DNA from: Thalassotalea sp.
GTDB taxonomy: Bacteria > Pseudomonadota > Gammaproteobacteria > Enterobacterales > Alteromonadaceae
DNA length: 64,000 nt
Direction: 5' to 3'
Assembly: GCA_029237915.1 (NCBI GenBank)
Contig: JAQWHD010000042.1
Coordinates: forward strand, 2,929 to 66,928
Shown here piece by piece: positions 27,345 through 37,985 of the stretch; positions within the stretch are counted from its first letter, which is position 1, and each line of letters starts with the position of its first letter. The notes under the pieces are model-generated. The model saw only the letters and a program-made list of their open reading frames with translations. It searched no databases and was not told the DNA's origin. The translations under genes were made by a program, and so were the position numbers.

Positions 27345-29692
27345 ATGACCGTAGAGAATTCAGGACATATAGAAACACCAGTATTAGCCTTACGCGATGT
27401 TGTCGTTTACCCACAAATGGTGATCCCTTTATTTGTTGGCCGCGAAAAATCAATTCGTTGTCTAGATCGTGCGATGGACAATGATAAAAAAGTATTTTTG
27501 GTTGCGCAAAAAGACGCAACTATTGATGATCCGCTTGCCGAAGACTTATACCAAGTAGGTACAGTCGCGACTATTTTACAAATGCTAAAATTGCCTGACG
27601 GTACAGTTAAGGTATTAGTTGAAGGTACACAGCGTGCCACAATCAAACAGTTCACTGAAACAGAAGACTACTTTATTGCCGATCTTGATTTACTCGAAGC
27701 AACAAATGTTGATGATGAAAATAATGAAGTATTAGTTCGCTCGGCGCTTTCTCAGTTTGAAGGTTATGTAAAACTTAATAAAAAAATCCCACCTGAAGTA
27801 TTAACTTCGGTATCGGCGATAGATAACGCTGAACAGCTTGCTGATACCATGGCAGCTCATATGCCACTTAAGTTACAGGACAAACAGCACGTTTTAGAAA
27901 TTGCCGATGTCAATCAACGTTTAGAATATCTAATGGCGTTGATGGAAGGCGAGATTGACTTACTGCAGGTTGAAAAGAAAATCCGTGGCCGTGTTAAAAA
28001 GCAAATGGAAAAAAGCCAACGCGAGTACTATTTGAATGAGCAAATGAAAGCGATTCAAAAAGAACTTGGCGATATGGATGATGTGCCTGATGAAGCCGAA
28101 CAGTTACTGAAAAAAATTGAAGAAGCGCAAATGCCAGAAGAAGCTAAGGATAAAACCTTAGCTGAACTGCAAAAATTAAAAATGATGTCACCTATGTCAG
28201 CAGAAGCTACAGTCGTTCGTAGCTACATTGACTGGATGATTTCAGTGCCATGGAAAAAACGCAGCAAATTAAAACGTAATTTAGCACTGGCTGAAGAAGT
28301 GCTTAATAAAGACCATTTCGGTTTAGAAGAAGTTAAAGAACGTATCCTTGAGTACCTAGCCGTACAACAACGAGTGACACAATTAAAAGGTCCTATTCTT
28401 TGTTTAGTTGGTCCTCCTGGGTTGGTAAAACCTCACTTGGTCAATCAATCGCGAAATCTACTGGGCGTAAATACGTACGTATGGCGCTTGGCGGGGTAAG
28501 AGATGAAGCTGAAATTCGTGGTCATCGCCGTACCTATATCGGTTCTATGCCAGGTAAGTTAATTCAAAAAATGGCAAAAGCAGAAGTTAAAAATCCACTG
28601 TTTTTACTAGATGAAATTGACAAAATGGCATCTGATATGCGCGGCGATCCAGCATCTGCTTTATTAGAAGTTTTAGATCCAGAGCAAAATACCACATTCA
28701 ACGATCACTACCTTGAGGTTGATTACGATTTATCTGATGTAATGTTTGTGGCGACTTCTAACAGCATGAACATTCCTGGTCCTTTACTTGATCGTATGGA
28801 AGTTATTCGTTTATCGGGTTACACCGAAGATGAAAAGCTTAACATCGCTCGTAATCATCTTTTAACTAAGCAAATTAAACGTAATGGTTTAAAAGATAAA
28901 GAGATCAGCATCGAAGACAGCGCAATTATTGGCATTATTCGTTACTACACTCGAGAAGCTGGTGTACGTAGCTTAGAGCGTGAAATTTCAAAGTTATGCC
29001 GCAAAGCTGTTAAGAAAATTTTACTAAATAAAGACCTTAAACAAGTCGTTATTAGCCAAGATAATCTTGAAGAATTCCTAGGTGTGCAACGTTGTGACTA
29101 TGGTAAAGCTGAAGACGAAAACCGTATCGGTCAAGTTACTGGTTTGGCATGGACTGAAGTAGGCGGTGAATTACTTACTATTGAAGCCGCATCTGTACCA
29201 GGTAAGGGTAAGTTACAATTCACCGGTTCATTAGGTGAAGTGATGCAAGAGTCGATTCAAGCTGCATTAACGGTTGTGCGCAGTCGTACTGAAACACTAC
29301 GTATTAATGAAGACTTTAATGAAAAACGCGATATTCACGTGCATGTTCCAGAAGGTGCAACCCCTAAAGATGGTCCAAGTGCAGGTATTGGTATGTGTAC
29401 TGCTTTAGTATCAAGCTTAACGGGTAACCCGGTTAAAGCAGATGTAGCAATGACAGGTGAAATTACCTTACGTGGTGAAGTATTGGCAATTGGTGGTTTA
29501 AAAGAAAAACTACTAGCTGCTCATCGCGGTGGTATTAAAACTGTTATTATTCCACATGAAAATGAACGTGACTTAAAAGATATTCCTGATAATGTGAAAG
29601 CCGATCTTACAATTCACCCAGTAAAATGGATTGATGAAGTGCTTAAAATCGCCTTAGCTGAATCGCCTGATAAGTTTACTATCGGTAAGTAA
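27345..29692 (+). pseudogene. lon: Lon protease, split by a 1-nt deletion in Walker A (real frameshift or sequencing error)
   Basis: ORF 27345-28499 reads ..CLVGPPG, then the sequence continues in the other frame as VGKTSLGQS... (ORF 28400-29692, with KDGPSAG and GGLKEK). One extra G at 28419-28421 restores a 782-aa Lon. Confidence 0.9.
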
Positions 29693-32545: not shown

Positions 32546-33334
32546 TTAGGTTTTAGCGAAGCTCGAGCGTTTACGTTGCGATAAGATAAGCTTTTTAGTG
32601 TACTTGTCTTTAGGGTTGGCGATGACTTCTTGTGTCGTGCCGTATTCCACAACTTTACCATCGCGTAAAACCATTAGTTTGTCACAAAAGTGTTCTACTT
32701 CAGCAATATCGTGGGAGATCAATAAATACGACAAGCCCATTTGCTCTTGGAGATCTAATAGTAAATTAATCATTTGTGCACGGATCGACAAATCGAGCGC
32801 AGCTAAGGCTTCATCTAATATAACCAATTGCGGTTGTAAAATTATTGCCCTTGCTAAAGATATACGCTGTTTTTGGCCACCAGAGAACATATGAGGGTAA
32901 AAATGCATATGGTCAGGTAGCAAGCCCACTTTTTGTAATGTGGCGCGTATCATCTGATTACGCTCATCTAAATCCAAGCGCGTATTTAACTTTAACGGCT
33001 CTTCTAACTGCTGGCGGATAGTTAAACTAGGGTTAAGCGTATTCGCCGCATCTTGAAATATCATGCGCACATGTTGACAGCGTTGCTTAAAATTACCGGT
33101 TTGTAATAACTGGCCATTTAATGATATATCACCCGTAGTTGGCCGGGCAGCGCCAACCAATAATTTTGCTAAAGTCGACTTACCTGAGCCTACTTCACCA
33201 ATAACGCCTAGAGTTTCTCGCGCATCGAGTTTAAAAGAAATAGGCTGTAATACTTCGACTTTTTTCTTGCTAAACCAGTTTGACTTGATTTTATAGGTTT
33301 TACTTAAGTTATTAACTTCAATTAAGCTGCCCAT
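32546..33334 (-). CDS. sapF: Peptide ABC transporter ATP-binding protein SapF
   Basis: GEVGSGKST, FSGGQKQR, ILDEA; last gene of the sap operon. Confidence 0.9.
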   Translation of the reverse strand: MGSLIEVNNLSKTYKIKSNWFSKKKVEVLQPISFKLDARETLGVIGEVGSGKSTLAKLLVGAARPTTGDISLNGQLLQTGNFKQRCQHVRMIFQDAANTLNPSLTIRQQLEEPLKLNTRLDLDERNQMIRATLQKVGLLPDHMHFYPHMFSGGQKQRISLARAIILQPQLVILDEALAALDLSIRAQMINLLLDLQEQMGLSYLLISHDIAEVEHFCDKLMVLRDGKVVEYGTTQEVIANPKDKYTKKLILSQRKRSSFAKT

Positions 33335-33336
33335 AA

Positions 33337-33444
33337 TTAATAACCCTCAACTCTGTGTGAAAAATGACAACTGACTTGCTGGTCATGAGGCGATTTTATT
33401 TTATAGGTTTTACTTAAGTTATTTACTGCGATTAAACTCCTCAT
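33337..33444 (-). CDS. 35-aa chimeric mini-ORF (SapF N-terminus + SapD C-terminus) formed by a duplicated gene junction
   Basis: MRSLIAVNNLSKTYKIKSPHDQQVSCHFSHRVEGY*; translation not demonstrated. Confidence 0.5.
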   Translation of the reverse strand: MRSLIAVNNLSKTYKIKSPHDQQVSCHFSHRVEGY

Positions 33445-33446
33445 TG

Positions 33447-34436
33447 CTAATAATCCTCACGATGTGAAAAATGGCAACTCACTTGATGACCATGAAAGGA
33501 CTCAATTTGCGGCGCGGTAACACATTTTTTTTGCGCATTCGGACAACGAGGACCTAAGCGACAACCAATAGGTAAATGTTGCAGCACAGGTATGGTGCCG
33601 GGCAGTGTTGCTAACTTAGCTTTTTTCGCAATGATCTTATCTGCCCTAGGCGTACTATCCATTAATGCTTTAGTGTATGGGTGGAAAGGGGTGTTAAAAA
33701 TTTGCTCGGTGGAGCCAGCTTCAACAAATTGTCCCGAGTACATAACGGTTAGGTTTTCGGTCCAGTGACTAATTTTTTCTAGCTCATGAGAAATCAATAA
33801 GATAGACATATTCTTTAACTGATTTAAGCTAGCGAGTAAGCGAAAAATTTGCGCTTGATTGGTTGCTTCCATTGAGGCTGTTGGCTCATCGGCAATAAGT
33901 AATTTTGGCCGTTTTGCTAATGCAATTGCTATCATCACCCGTTGGCAAAATGCTGTCGTTAGCTGGTGTGGGTAGCTTTTTACTATTTGTTCATGCTGTT
34001 TTATACCGACTTTGTGCAATAATTTAATCGCTGCTTTGCGGCGTTGCTTAGCTCGTTGCCAAAAATTACCGCTAAACTGGCTCTGATCAAGGGCTTCTTC
34101 AATTTGATCGCCAATATTGGTGGTTGGATCTAAACAACTCATCGGCTCTTGAAAAATCATCGCTACATCACGAGTGATGATTTGTTTGCGCTCTTCTACC
34201 GATAACCTTAATAAATCTATGCCTTGCCAATGAAATCTATCGGCATGTACAGTCCATTTGTCATCAAGCACACCGATAATTGCCTGTGCCAGAATGGATT
34301 TTCCTGAGCCAGATTCACCTACTAAGCCACGAAACTCACCTTCTTTAATTGTTAATGACACGCGATCAACCGCAAGAATGTTCTCACCGCTGCTGGTTAA
34401 TTCGATGCTTAAATTTCTAATATCAAGTAAATTCAT
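33447..34436 (-). CDS. sapD: Peptide ABC transporter ATP-binding protein SapD
   Basis: GESGSGKS, IADEPT, HPYTKAL, C-terminal GCRLGPRCP..C..C motif. Confidence 0.92.
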   Translation of the reverse strand: MNLLDIRNLSIELTSSGENILAVDRVSLTIKEGEFRGLVGESGSGKSILAQAIIGVLDDKWTVHADRFHWQGIDLLRLSVEERKQIITRDVAMIFQEPMSCLDPTTNIGDQIEEALDQSQFSGNFWQRAKQRRKAAIKLLHKVGIKQHEQIVKSYPHQLTTAFCQRVMIAIALAKRPKLLIADEPTASMEATNQAQIFRLLASLNQLKNMSILLISHELEKISHWTENLTVMYSGQFVEAGSTEQIFNTPFHPYTKALMDSTPRADKIIAKKAKLATLPGTIPVLQHLPIGCRLGPRCPNAQKKCVTAPQIESFHGHQVSCHFSHREDY

Positions 34437-35326
34437 TAGCTTTCTTTTTGTGTTTTTAATGAATGTCGTAAACCTTCACCAACTAAATTGGTCACGATCA
34501 CCGAAAATAAAATGGCTAAACCTGGGAAATAACTAGTCCATGGGGCAATATAAAATAAATCCAATGAGGTGGCTAACATCGAGCCCCACTCTGGCATTGG
34601 AATTGGTGCACCTAATCCTAAAAAGCCTAGGGCAGCAATATCTAAAATAGCAGCTGATTGTGCCAAGGTTGCTTGAATAATGATTTTATCTATGATGTTT
34701 GGGTAAATAGAAGTAATTAACACTCGTAACTCACTCGCGCCATCTAAAATCGGAATTAAAACATAGCCTTTTTTCTGCTCTTCTTTAATGGCAATGCGCG
34801 TTACATGCACAAATTGCGGTATTGAAACTAACGCTAACGCCCATAAAATGTTTTCCAAACCCGGACCGAGGATCGCGACAATGATTATCGCTAGTAACAG
34901 TGAAGGAATAGATAATATTACATCGAGGAAATGGGTCAGAAAACTGGCTTTAAGGCCACGACTGAGAGCTGAAATAGAGCCAATTACCACGCCAATTACT
35001 AACGCCATAATAACCACTAAAAAGCTTAAGCCAAAAGTTAGTGAGGTACCGTGAATTAAGCGAGATAACATATCTCGGCCAAGATCGTCAGTGCCTAATA
35101 AATAACTTAAATTACCTTCATCGCTCCACGCCGGAGGGATCAATAATGAATCACCAATAGCAACGGCTGAATGAGGCGTAATAAACTGGCCAAATACCGC
35201 TAAAAACACTAAAAACAAGTAACAACTTAAACCAATTATCGCGACCGGCGTTTTTTTAAATGTATGCCATAACTGTAATATGGGAGAAGGAAACTCTTCT
35301 TCTAAATAAGTATGCTCACGCGCCAT
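34436..35326 (-). CDS. sapC: Peptide ABC transporter permease SapC
   Basis: LLGTDDLGRDMLSRL, LGFLGLGAP.PMPEWG. Confidence 0.92.
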   Translation of the reverse strand: MAREHTYLEEEFPSPILQLWHTFKKTPVAIIGLSCYLFLVFLAVFGQFITPHSAVAIGDSLLIPPAWSDEGNLSYLLGTDDLGRDMLSRLIHGTSLTFGLSFLVVIMALVIGVVIGSISALSRGLKASFLTHFLDVILSIPSLLLAIIIVAILGPGLENILWALALVSIPQFVHVTRIAIKEEQKKGYVLIPILDGASELRVLITSIYPNIIDKIIIQATLAQSAAILDIAALGFLGLGAPIPMPEWGSMLATSLDLFYIAPWTSYFPGLAILFSVIVTNLVGEGLRHSLKTQKES

Positions 35327-36344
35327 GTTTTCTATTCCTTTCCAGCGGGTTTAGTGCGGCGTAAATAAAGTCAGCGAAAATATTGATCACAAAAGTAAAA
35401 ATAGCTAGTGCGATTAAACCGCCTTGAATAGCAGTATAATCACGTTGATAAATACTGTCTATTAACCAACTACCAGCGCCTTGCCAATCAAATATTACTT
35501 CAACAATCATCGCGATAGTTACTAAGTTGGCAAAATATAAGCCCATTTGGCGAATAATGTTAACTAATGAATTACGAATACCATGATGATAAATAATTGC
35601 ACTTTGGCTTAAGCCTTTAGCTTTTGCCGCTTTGATATAGTTGGAGTCTAAAACATCAAGCATAGAAGTACGTGCTAAGCGAATAAATAAAGTCATCGGG
35701 GCAAGCGCAACCGTCATCGCCGGTAATATAATATGGCTTACCGCATCCTTAAAAGCACTCATTTTATCGACATTATCACTGAGTAGAATATCGATAAACT
35801 TGAAGCCTGTTACATGCTCTATTTCAAATAATAAGTTTAATTGTCCTGAAGATGGCAACCATGACAAGGTGATAGAAAATATTAAAATTAATATTAATGC
35901 TAGCCAAAACGCCGGGATAGAATAGCCTATCATGGCAAATGCTAATATCGCTTTATCAGCCGGTTTGTTATGTAAAATAGCAGCAACAAAGCCTAACGGT
36001 ACCCCAATGAACATAGCAATAAACAGCGCCGTAATACACAGTTCAATAGTGGAAGGTAAATAAGTTAATAACTCACTGCTAACTGGTACTTGGCTTGACA
36101 TCGAAATACCAAAGTTGCCGTTAAATAACTGGCCAAGATAGGCAAAATATTGATGAAATACCGAGCTGTCCATCTGGTATAAGCTATTTAATTGTTCGAG
36201 TTGTTCTGCGCTAGGTGATTTTTGACCACTTAGATTGGTGATGACTTCACCGGGGAATAAGTAACTTAAACTAAACGACACTACGGTTAACATCAATAAT
36301 GTGAAGAATAATAAGTTTAAACGCCTTAGGGTAAAAGTTAGCAT
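35316..36344 (-). CDS. sapB: Peptide ABC transporter permease SapB
   Basis: MLTFTLRRLNL, EAA-like YIKAAKAKGLS, IYQRDY. Confidence 0.92.
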   Translation of the reverse strand: MLTFTLRRLNLLFFTLLMLTVVSFSLSYLFPGEVITNLSGQKSPSAEQLEQLNSLYQMDSSVFHQYFAYLGQLFNGNFGISMSSQVPVSSELLTYLPSTIELCITALFIAMFIGVPLGFVAAILHNKPADKAILAFAMIGYSIPAFWLALILILIFSITLSWLPSSGQLNLLFEIEHVTGFKFIDILLSDNVDKMSAFKDAVSHIILPAMTVALAPMTLFIRLARTSMLDVLDSNYIKAAKAKGLSQSAIIYHHGIRNSLVNIIRQMGLYFANLVTIAMIVEVIFDWQGAGSWLIDSIYQRDYTAIQGGLIALAIFTFVINIFADFIYAALNPLERNRKHGA

Positions 36345-37985
36345 CTAATTCTCCCCTACAGTTTTACTTACGTTTTCAAAATTAATGCCACCAAAGGCTG
36401 CCAAAATATCGCCGTTAATCCCGGCAACTTTTGCCTGTGCTCGTTTAGAGTGTGCGATTGGTAGCAATGGCATTTGTTCAACTAAAATATTTTGTGCTTG
36501 TAAATATAGTTTTTTACGCTCGCTAATATCATTGGTTATATATGCCTTAGCCAGTAATTGATCAAATTTTTCATTACACCAAAAAGCTCTGTTACGACCA
36601 GTTTCCATCGCTGAACACGACAATAGCGGAGAGAAAAAATTATCAGGATCGGGATGATCCGCGGTCCAACCAATTAATACCGATTGATGCTCGCCTTTGG
36701 CTAATTTACGTAAAAATGTATTCCACTCCCAAGTAATAATATTAACCTCAACGCCTATCGCTTCTAAATCGGATTTAATTAACTTCGCCATTTTTAACGC
36801 GTTAGGGTTGTAGTCACGCTGTACAGGTATTGCCCAAATATCAAAACTAAAGCCTTCACTTAAGCCTGCGTTGGCAAGTAATGTTTTGGCTTTTTCTACA
36901 GAGTAGTCAAATGTCGTAACTTCATCGGAAAATGCCCATGATGCTTTTGGTAAAAGCGATTCAGCAATTTCGGCTTGCTCGCCATAAACCGCGGTCATTA
37001 TTGCTTCTTTATTTACCGCATGAGCTATGGCTTTGCGCACACTTGGATTATCAAAAGGTGGCTTTTGCGCATTAAAGGCAAAAAAAGCAACATTGAATGA
37101 CGTTACTTCTTCTAAGACTAAATCGGGGCGAGATTTAATTTCATCCGCGGCAATAGGGAAGGATATGACATCGCATTCGTGGGTTAACAATTTAGTTAAA
37201 CGGCCAGTGTTATTTGGCGTGATGTTATAAATTAACTTCTCTATTTCAACGTCTCGGCGCCAGTAATCGTCATGTCTAGAATAACGGATAAATGAATTAT
37301 TGCGATATTGTTTAAATTTAAACGGGCCAGTGCCTATAGGTAGACTGTCTAGTTGGCTTAGCGCTTGCGGATCACTATCCGCCAATAATTGCTCAGCATA
37401 TTGTTTCGATAAAATCACCGCAAATGGCGTAGCCAAATTTGATAAAAAGGTACTGTCAGCTCGGTTTAGTTTAAAGCGTACTGTGTAGTCGTCTATCTTT
37501 TCAATACTGTCGACTAACTCATGAAAGTTAACACTTTGAAAAAAAGGAAAATTGCCATCTACCGATTGATAAAACGGATTTTGTGTATCTAAAATTCGGT
37601 TAAAGCTAAAGATAACATCATCGGCATTCATCGTACGTGTCGGGGTGAAATACTCGGTTTGATGAAAACTAACATCGCGCCTTAGGTAAAAGGTGATTAA
37701 TTTACCATTACGAGTAACATGCCATGACTTTGCCAGCGCAGGTATACGCTGTAAATTGGTGTTGTTAAAGTCGATAAGGCGATTATAAAGCTGCTTAGAC
37801 GTAGCATCTATCGTGGTACCGTCAGTTATAAGCTGCGGATTAAATGAGCTTGGCGCACCTTCCGAGCAATACACTATGCCTTCAGTTAAAACTGAATCAT
37901 CGGCGCTAGGGTTACAACCCATTAGGGCGGTAAATAGTAAACCTAACGGTATTGTTTTTGTTATTAACCTTAGATTAAACTTCAT
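36345..37985 (-). CDS. sapA: Peptide ABC transporter substrate-binding lipoprotein SapA
   Basis: Lipobox ALMGC; VYCSEGAPSSFNPQ, PIGTGPFKF, GWTADHPDPDNF. Confidence 0.92.
   Translation of the reverse strand: MKFNLRLITKTIPLGLLFTALMGCNPSADDSVLTEGIVYCSEGAPSSFNPQLITDGTTIDATSKQLYNRLIDFNNTNLQRIPALAKSWHVTRNGKLITFYLRRDVSFHQTEYFTPTRTMNADDVIFSFNRILDTQNPFYQSVDGNFPFFQSVNFHELVDSIEKIDDYTVRFKLNRADSTFLSNLATPFAVILSKQYAEQLLADSDPQALSQLDSLPIGTGPFKFKQYRNNSFIRYSRHDDYWRRDVEIEKLIYNITPNNTGRLTKLLTHECDVISFPIAADEIKSRPDLVLEEVTSFNVAFFAFNAQKPPFDNPSVRKAIAHAVNKEAIMTAVYGEQAEIAESLLPKASWAFSDEVTTFDYSVEKAKTLLANAGLSEGFSFDIWAIPVQRDYNPNALKMAKLIKSDLEAIGVEVNIITWEWNTFLRKLAKGEHQSVLIGWTADHPDPDNFFSPLLSCSAMETGRNRAFWCNEKFDQLLAKAYITNDISERKKLYLQAQNILVEQMPLLPIAHSKRAQAKVAGINGDILAAFGGINFENVSKTVGEN

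Follow-up and report, generated by a model that had tools for sequence, protein, structure and literature searches.

In a 64,000-nucleotide (nt) stretch of a contig from an uncultured marine Thalassotalea (Colwelliaceae), here called the window, whose positions are used throughout, the junction between the last two genes of a peptide transporter operon, sapD and sapF, is repeated head-to-tail. The host occurs in many marine metagenomes, and its nearest named relative is 'Thalassomonas sp. M1454' (genome G016), with protein identities of 95.4% for SapD and 95.8% for SapF. The operon consists of five co-oriented genes, all on the minus strand, as are the features of the repeat, in the order sapA-sapB-sapC-sapD-sapF, which is the same in relatives. 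It comprises genes for a sapA-like substrate-binding protein (36345..37985), a sapB-like and a sapC-like permease (35316..36344 and 34436..35326) and two ATPases, SapD of 329 amino acids (aa; 33447..34436, stop TAG at 33449-33447) and SapF of 262 aa (32546..33334), and thus has the five-gene composition of a SapABCDF / Opp-Dpp type peptide ABC transporter operon. The top NCBIfam matches are SapA, SapB, SapC, SapD and SapF, each with a score under the equivalog cut-off, and for the first gene DppA scores the same as SapA. Here, we describe the repeated junction, the small chimeric open reading frame (ORF) that it contains and its variation among strains. We propose, with moderate confidence, that the duplication acts as a variable-number repeat that would be kept open by relaying coupled ribosomes from sapD to sapF.

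The repeated segment, as revealed by alignment, consists of the last 16 sapD codons, the stop, a 2-nt spacer and the first 18 sapF codons. Copy 1 (33391..33497, 107 nt) holds the last 16 codons of sapD, TAG and CA, followed by 18 SapF-like codons; in copy 2 (33281..33390, 110 nt) a SapD-like tail, TAA and TT precede codons 1-18 of the true sapF. The SapF-like head and the SapD-like tail are joined into a mini-ORF of 35 codons (33337..33444), our proposed relay ORF, which sits between the intact sapD and sapF, starts with an ATG at 33444, ends with a TAA at 33339-33337 and is translated as MRSLIAVNNLSKTYKIKSPHDQQVSCHFSHRVEGY before the stop; open homologues are present in the contigs L025, L107 (two units) and L118. 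We refer to the halves that form this mini-ORF as inner and to the corresponding ends of the working genes as outer. The stop-to-ATG spacer measures 2 nt at both junctions of the window, with CA after the sapD TAG and TT before the sapF start at 33334. At the novel joint (33389..33392) SapF codon 18 passes into the SapD-type tail as TCG/CCT with a possible TC microhomology (letters ...AAAATAAAATCG/CCTCATG..., the slash marking the joint), and the joint is the same in L022, L024, L025, L113 and L118. An in-frame GTT (Val) insertion at 33349..33351 is common to all inner units, and a 26-nt core at 33398..33423 is identical in the other copy (33288-33313).

The two copies are about 80% alike, the inner copy being about 18% diverged. 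Compared over 33 aligned codons, they show 18 nt differences, 13 of them at third positions; at the codon level, 10 differences are synonymous and 5 are replacements. The junction repeat was missed by Tandem Repeats Finder, probably because it has just two copies that are about 80% alike. A preliminary description of this DNA, made from the letters alone, had claimed that some 110 bp at the sapD stop and sapF start occur twice in tandem with the 2-nt spacing kept at both junctions; sequence, coordinates and translation were all reproduced, and our recount of the codon differences gave the same totals. A search of the window's own genome returned this one locus as the only match.

The layout of the junction makes the mini-ORF a simple outcome of the length of the unit. 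The length of 107 nt equals 2 modulo 3, which is the frame offset from sapD to sapF (stop plus 2 nt), so that every internal copy is automatically an ORF, which opens with a sapF-type ATG 2 nt past the preceding stop and closes with a sapD-type stop 2 nt short of the ATG that follows. Such a match between length and offset is expected a priori for one duplication in three. Two Shine-Dalgarno-like stretches were read by eye from the sequence, a GAGG 10 nt 5' of the mini-ORF ATG (33455..33458) and a GAGGG 9 nt 5' of the sapF ATG (33344..33348). Promoter-like sites and RNA folding at the junction gave no signal above chance (z -0.36).

The duplication is real DNA and varies in copy number. The novel joint is present in at least five independent metagenome data sets, produced by several unrelated studies and assemblers, and in run X1, which is probably the source sample, a unitig of 167 nt covers the complete inner unit and matches the window letter for letter. 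Two copies are found in L025, a Logan contig that reaches from sapC to sapF, and in L118 (ENA ERZ1764445), and three copies, i.e. two inner units, in L022/L107 (ENA ERZ650158); a contig of run X6 holds an inner-to-inner joint. Single-copy contigs from runs X3, X4 and X5 and from assemblies L108 and L110 skip exactly positions 33332-33441, 110 nt with a joint that lies within the ATG and is ambiguous by 3 nt, and in X7 the single-copy joint is seen in a loose end. Over the flanks compared, 0-2 positions set these single-copy contigs apart from the window; for L108 and L110 we counted 0 differences in 2,490 nt upstream and 0-1 downstream. Thus, one, two and three copies occur in near-identical strains, as in a variable-number repeat. 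The k-mers of the single-copy joint are absent from the two-copy form and vice versa, and both forms therefore exist in the reads. Such mixed populations account for the unitig breaks at this place and for an N gap in one scaffold from the same sample (L023/L109). An exact-pattern scan for the novel joint found no match in GTDB genome contigs or in JGI metagenome contigs.

How old is the repeat, and how far has it spread? The junction is single in each of the 18 other species representatives checked in the genus, and in the matches from neighbouring genera. Three further lineages, represented by L118, by L114-L117 with L113, and by L111 with L112, do have inner-type units. The synonymous divergence (dS) from the window is 0.12 for L118; for L114-L117/L113 it is 0.41 in sapD and 0.14 in sapF. 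Along contig L111 the divergence from the window drops from 15-20% to 4-5% at about 430 nt before the sapD stop, and along contig L112 it climbs again about 300-400 nt into sapF. The dS of this lineage to the window is about 1.2-1.8 outside the tract and 0.19-0.27 inside it (from about -430 to +300 nt round the junction; L111:3560-4049 and L112:1-450), and G016 is equally distant throughout. This drop and rise against a constant G016 show, from the compared contigs, that a tract of about 0.75 kb with the array at its centre was moved by homologous recombination from the window clade into a lineage as distant as G016. In the comparison of sap flank affinities, a clear tract boundary was seen in the L111/L112 lineage only.

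The array is old: strains with one and two copies have identical flanks, and the inner copy is about 18% diverged. The same two observations rule out a recent in-situ duplication followed by drift, and the comparison of lineages shows an array that predates the species. The one-copy form is most simply seen as a secondary deletion, by a crossover in the ATG, that was spread by recombination. Exchange between units has left further traces. In a contig of X8, which covers window positions 33191-33349 in a strain about 2.5% diverged, a sapD-type tail (…CAT CGT GAG) runs into the inner-type GGT TAT TAA TT ATG; this junction is a hybrid of outer and inner copy, with which SapD would end in REGY. 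Unit 1 of L107 ends as the outer copy does, with GAT TAT TAG. In L108 (NCBI metagenome-assembled genome GCA_029243065.1, 2493-2520) the single-copy sapF has AAT ATC at codon 9 (Asn9 to Ile), and ATC is also what inner units of other strains have at this codon. This points to conversion of a patch of the working gene by an inner unit or, alternatively, to an assembled genome whose consensus is mosaic.

Throughout these lineages, frame and spacing are conserved. All five complete inner units are open over 35-36 codons, and partial inner units from another three lineages are open over their readable part; a mini-ORF broken in relatives that have the duplication was thus seen in none of the units recovered in full. 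All stop-to-ATG junctions seen measure exactly 2 nt, with the letters CA, CC, TA or TT. The three indel events that we inferred, the GTT insertion, the gain of a head codon and the loss of a head codon in the window, are all in frame. A stop would result from about 6% of substitutions, and the probability of finding none over about 33 inferred substitutions is about 0.13; combined with the in-frame indels it falls to about 0.001-0.005, both values being hand estimates made without simulation. In 14 relatives the distance from the sapD stop to the sapF start ranges from -4 to +3 nt, with some starts being GTG or TTG. This close spacing on the same strand is kept in the relatives, as predicted for a translationally coupled pair, and the -4 to +3 nt geometry across the genus is, judged from sequence, the signature of termination-reinitiation in the sense of the coupling knowledge reviewed in PMC12548453.

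We therefore propose the following mechanism, in which translation of sapF would be coupled to that of sapD by termination-reinitiation in the genus. Ribosomes that finish sapD would restart at the ATG of the mini-ORF, aided by the GAGG 10 nt upstream, translate its 35-36 codons and halt 2 nt before the sapF ATG, which would recreate the original coupling context. Since the relay would deliver ribosomes to this stop, selection would keep the ORF open and the spacing fixed. The duplication would be cheap while the ORF stays open, and selection would act on the frame and the spacing, not on the peptide. The number of units would shift by unequal recombination between them, and inner/outer hybrids would arise likewise.

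Several observations weigh against this proposal. With its own GAGGG, sapF could initiate independently, and the relay may be unneeded. That the relay unit is dispensable is evident from the single-copy strains. None of the RNA runs covered by our run search contains the junction stretch. Three events underlie the indel argument, and some of them are triplet slippages (ATG ATG, AGT AGT), a class of change that the mechanism itself may favour. Within the species, inner units differ from one another at 4-8 of 108 nt, where about 2 would be predicted from a flank dS of about 0.02, an excess that probably reflects the sorting of paralogous units after expansion and contraction. Finally, the synonymous excess between inner and outer copies, together with a ratio of 6 synonymous to 4 replacement events in the inner tails, exceeds what selection for an open frame alone would predict.

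This synonymous excess deserves a closer look. We simulated a duplication arising in situ, in which the inner copy was neutral and the outer copy accepted synonymous changes only, conditioned on the number of differences. The simulations gave on average 7.4-7.9 third-position differences versus 13 observed (P 0.0025-0.0085), and 10-11.5 replacement codons versus 5 observed (P 0.0003-0.005). The excess is real, and the constraint on the working copy is insufficient to explain it; the claim of the preliminary description that neutral decay would not favour third positions thus holds in simulation (P 0.0003-0.009). Among the inner units themselves, the heads show 4 synonymous versus 10 replacement events, which looks neutral, and the 6:4 ratio of the tails (P 0.02-0.05) points to a weak constraint. 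Three candidate causes remain: an out-of-register crossover between two diverged alleles, a repeated swapping of inner and outer roles by unequal crossover, of which hybrids are seen, and a degree of selection on the tail of the peptide. By reasoning, we rejected gene conversion templated by the working copy, which would erase synonymous and replacement differences alike, and also purged inner-to-outer conversions, which would leave replacement and not synonymous differences.

The first of these candidates concerns the origin of the repeat and is compatible with a later relay role. In this scenario, a crossover, illegitimate or homology-facilitated, joined allele P (sapABCD, stop and the sapF head) to allele Q (the sapD tail, sapF and downstream DNA). 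Both inner halves would once have been working gene ends, and this history would account for their mostly synonymous differences from the outer halves, beyond what a neutral inner and a constrained outer copy allow. In a parsimony reading, the ancestral inner tail was probably PHGHQVSCHFSHRVEDY, which L113 retains, and it differs from the sapD tail by synonymous changes only, apart from the joint codon and the one inserted Val. Homologous recombination between lineages of species level occurs exactly here, as the L111/L112 tract illustrates, and the inner spacer TAATT equals that of G016, the outer spacer being TAGCA. Against such a seam, the ranking of all relatives is the same by SapD as by SapF, and a working inner-type tail (X2) or head (Y1) was not found among the top homologues inspected of the 240 listed. 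Both copies moreover share derived states relative to G016 (CAT TTT, GAG, TTA, TAT), so that the two alleles would have to be close relatives. The dS between the copies, about 0.6 as a rough hand estimate rather than a tool result, lies below the dS of at least 1.2 (saturated) to any available outgroup, and it also fits an in-lineage duplication between the split from G016 and that from L114. A related-locus search with SapD returned only relatives about 40% identical, in which generic ABC motifs are dominant. The preliminary description had offered a seam between two diverged alleles of the operon, with incongruent phylogenies of sapABCD and sapF as its mark. Between sapD and sapF no incongruence was found, and the window and one-copy strains are identical in the flanks to either side, so that these comparisons gave no sign of a seam in this genome; as an origin, the idea would still account for the synonymous bias, the alleles being closer to each other than to the outgroups. 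We regard such an origin as possible, if doubtful.

Could the repeat instead be a selectively neutral leftover, tolerated because sapF has its own ribosome-binding site, with the ORF open for want of time or mutations? The GAGGG before sapF, the unremarkable probability of lacking a stop, a copy number that drifts from 1 to 3 in the same background, and RNA structure and promoter signals at chance are all compatible with this view. It has to be set against indels that are all in frame and junctions that measure exactly 2 nt in lineages up to dS 0.4 apart, and against the significant synonymous bias, and we consider it unlikely. A contingency-type locus, in which gain and loss of relay ORFs by unequal recombination would tune the number of ribosomes arriving at sapF, and with it the SapD:SapF ratio, and the SapD-like tail would be selected, giving a micropeptide born from two gene ends, appears to us distinctly improbable.

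Less likely still is a role of the mini-ORF product as a micropeptide under purifying selection, e.g. one that acts by its SapD-type C-terminal Cys/His tail. The ORF is retained in all lineages, QVSCHFSH is invariant in the protein with varying codons (TGT/TGC, CAT/CAC, TCA/TCC), and the tail ratio and the overall synonymous excess point in the same direction. SapD has Cys292/298/305/321 in the pattern C-x5-C-x6-C-x15-C, whose spacing matches, as a sequence pattern, that of the [4Fe-4S] ligands Cys 284/290/297/315 of E. coli DppD (PMC12136057). Of these four cysteines the duplicated tail includes just the fourth, and the mini-protein is thus unable to bind a cluster by itself. In the window's inner unit, the changes E6A, GH to DQ and D to G affect genus-invariant positions; the inner units are hypervariable at head codons 2-4 and 9-10, and the unit is missing in near-identical strains and doubled in others. 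The exact mini-protein has no record as a gene product and no family match in NCBIfam, and gene callers left the mini-ORF uncalled in every listed contig that spans a complete inner unit. The suggestion in the preliminary description of a selected mini-protein or a translational-coupling relay therefore divides: an ORF and a 2-nt geometry kept in every unit seen in full, with in-frame indels, argue for the relay, and the replaced residues, the neutral heads and the dispensability in near-identical strains argue against the peptide.

That the duplication is an assembly artefact of a strain mixture, which might be suspected from a window taken from a metagenome-assembled genome in 71 contigs, from the mixed X1 sample (flanks at 40-46x depth, inner unitig at 16x) and from the N gap in the L023/L109 scaffold, is effectively refuted by the X1 unitig and by a novel joint that no mixture of single-copy strains could produce.

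As a separate observation on the SapD C-terminus, many SapD homologues, some labelled Colwellia and others from unnamed metagenomes (P0028, P0055, P0062, P0065, P0066, P0072 and P0097), are 340-350 aa long. We considered these longer tails as related duplications and rejected the idea, as they are Lys-rich, low-complexity C-terminal extensions after the SCHF motif. Within sapD, at window positions 33544-33683, two 35-nt pieces with 70 differing letters between them match contigs at a depth of 177-214 that come from other organisms of far higher abundance; these matches are conserved ABC-ATPase sequence and unrelated to the repeat. Elsewhere in the window, lon (27345-29692, plus strand) appears as two overlapping ORFs, 27345-28499 and 28400-29692, with a Walker A stretch CCTCCTGGGTTGGTAAAACC that has one G fewer than GPPGVGKT. 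Scaffold L023, identical to the window in the flanks compared, has a lon gene call of 477 aa, and strain L022 has an intact Lon of 782 aa.

How does the repeat compare with known systems? Short ORFs that solely deliver a ribosome have been reviewed, as have MIRU units coupled to a downstream gene (PMC12548453). MIRU (mycobacterial interspersed repetitive units) are short intra-operon tandem units, for example between senX3 and regX3, with a strain-variable copy number (PMC12548453, PMC4213456). The junction repeat resembles them in being a tandem unit between co-oriented genes, in placing the stop of each small ORF beside the next start and in varying in copy number among strains. However, MIRU are dispersed, apparently mobile, found at many loci and coupled at -4 nt, whereas the spacing here is +2 nt and the unit is a local duplicate of two gene ends at a single locus; with one match in the genome, the repeat does not belong to a dispersed mobile family. 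The same-strand stop and ATG, 2 nt apart, also liken it to termination-reinitiation coupling with delivery ORFs, beyond which it would go by having one or two relay ORFs in series that are built from the ends of the genes themselves. In its head-to-tail arrangement, its possible 2-nt microhomology joint, the expansion and contraction of the array and its hybrids (X8, L107 unit 1, L108), it is like a variable-number tandem repeat formed by homology-facilitated illegitimate recombination. Unlike in the usual tandem duplication with unequal crossover, the copies are just about 80% alike and yet the array is dynamic, with a synonymous bias in the differences between copies. Compared with the DppD/DppF-type ATPases (PMC12136057), SapD has the same four-Cys pattern, SapF appears, from its length of 262 aa, to be without a C-terminal domain, and the mini-ORF with its single Cys falls outside the family. 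By these comparisons, the junction repeat is not a new system but a natural example of a repeat type already known, a MIRU counterpart that was born locally.

In summary, the sapD-sapF junction provides an example from natural populations of a tolerated duplication across a gene boundary that would be coupled, in which the frame arithmetic yields a putative relay ORF that would restore the stop-start context. It is a variable-number repeat inside an operon that passes between lineages by recombination. For annotation and assembly, it explains contig breaks or N gaps between sapD and sapF in this species. It may serve as a simple system in which to test serial termination-reinitiation, the way in which gene ends give birth to small ORFs and what causes a synonymous bias in a seemingly non-functional copy.

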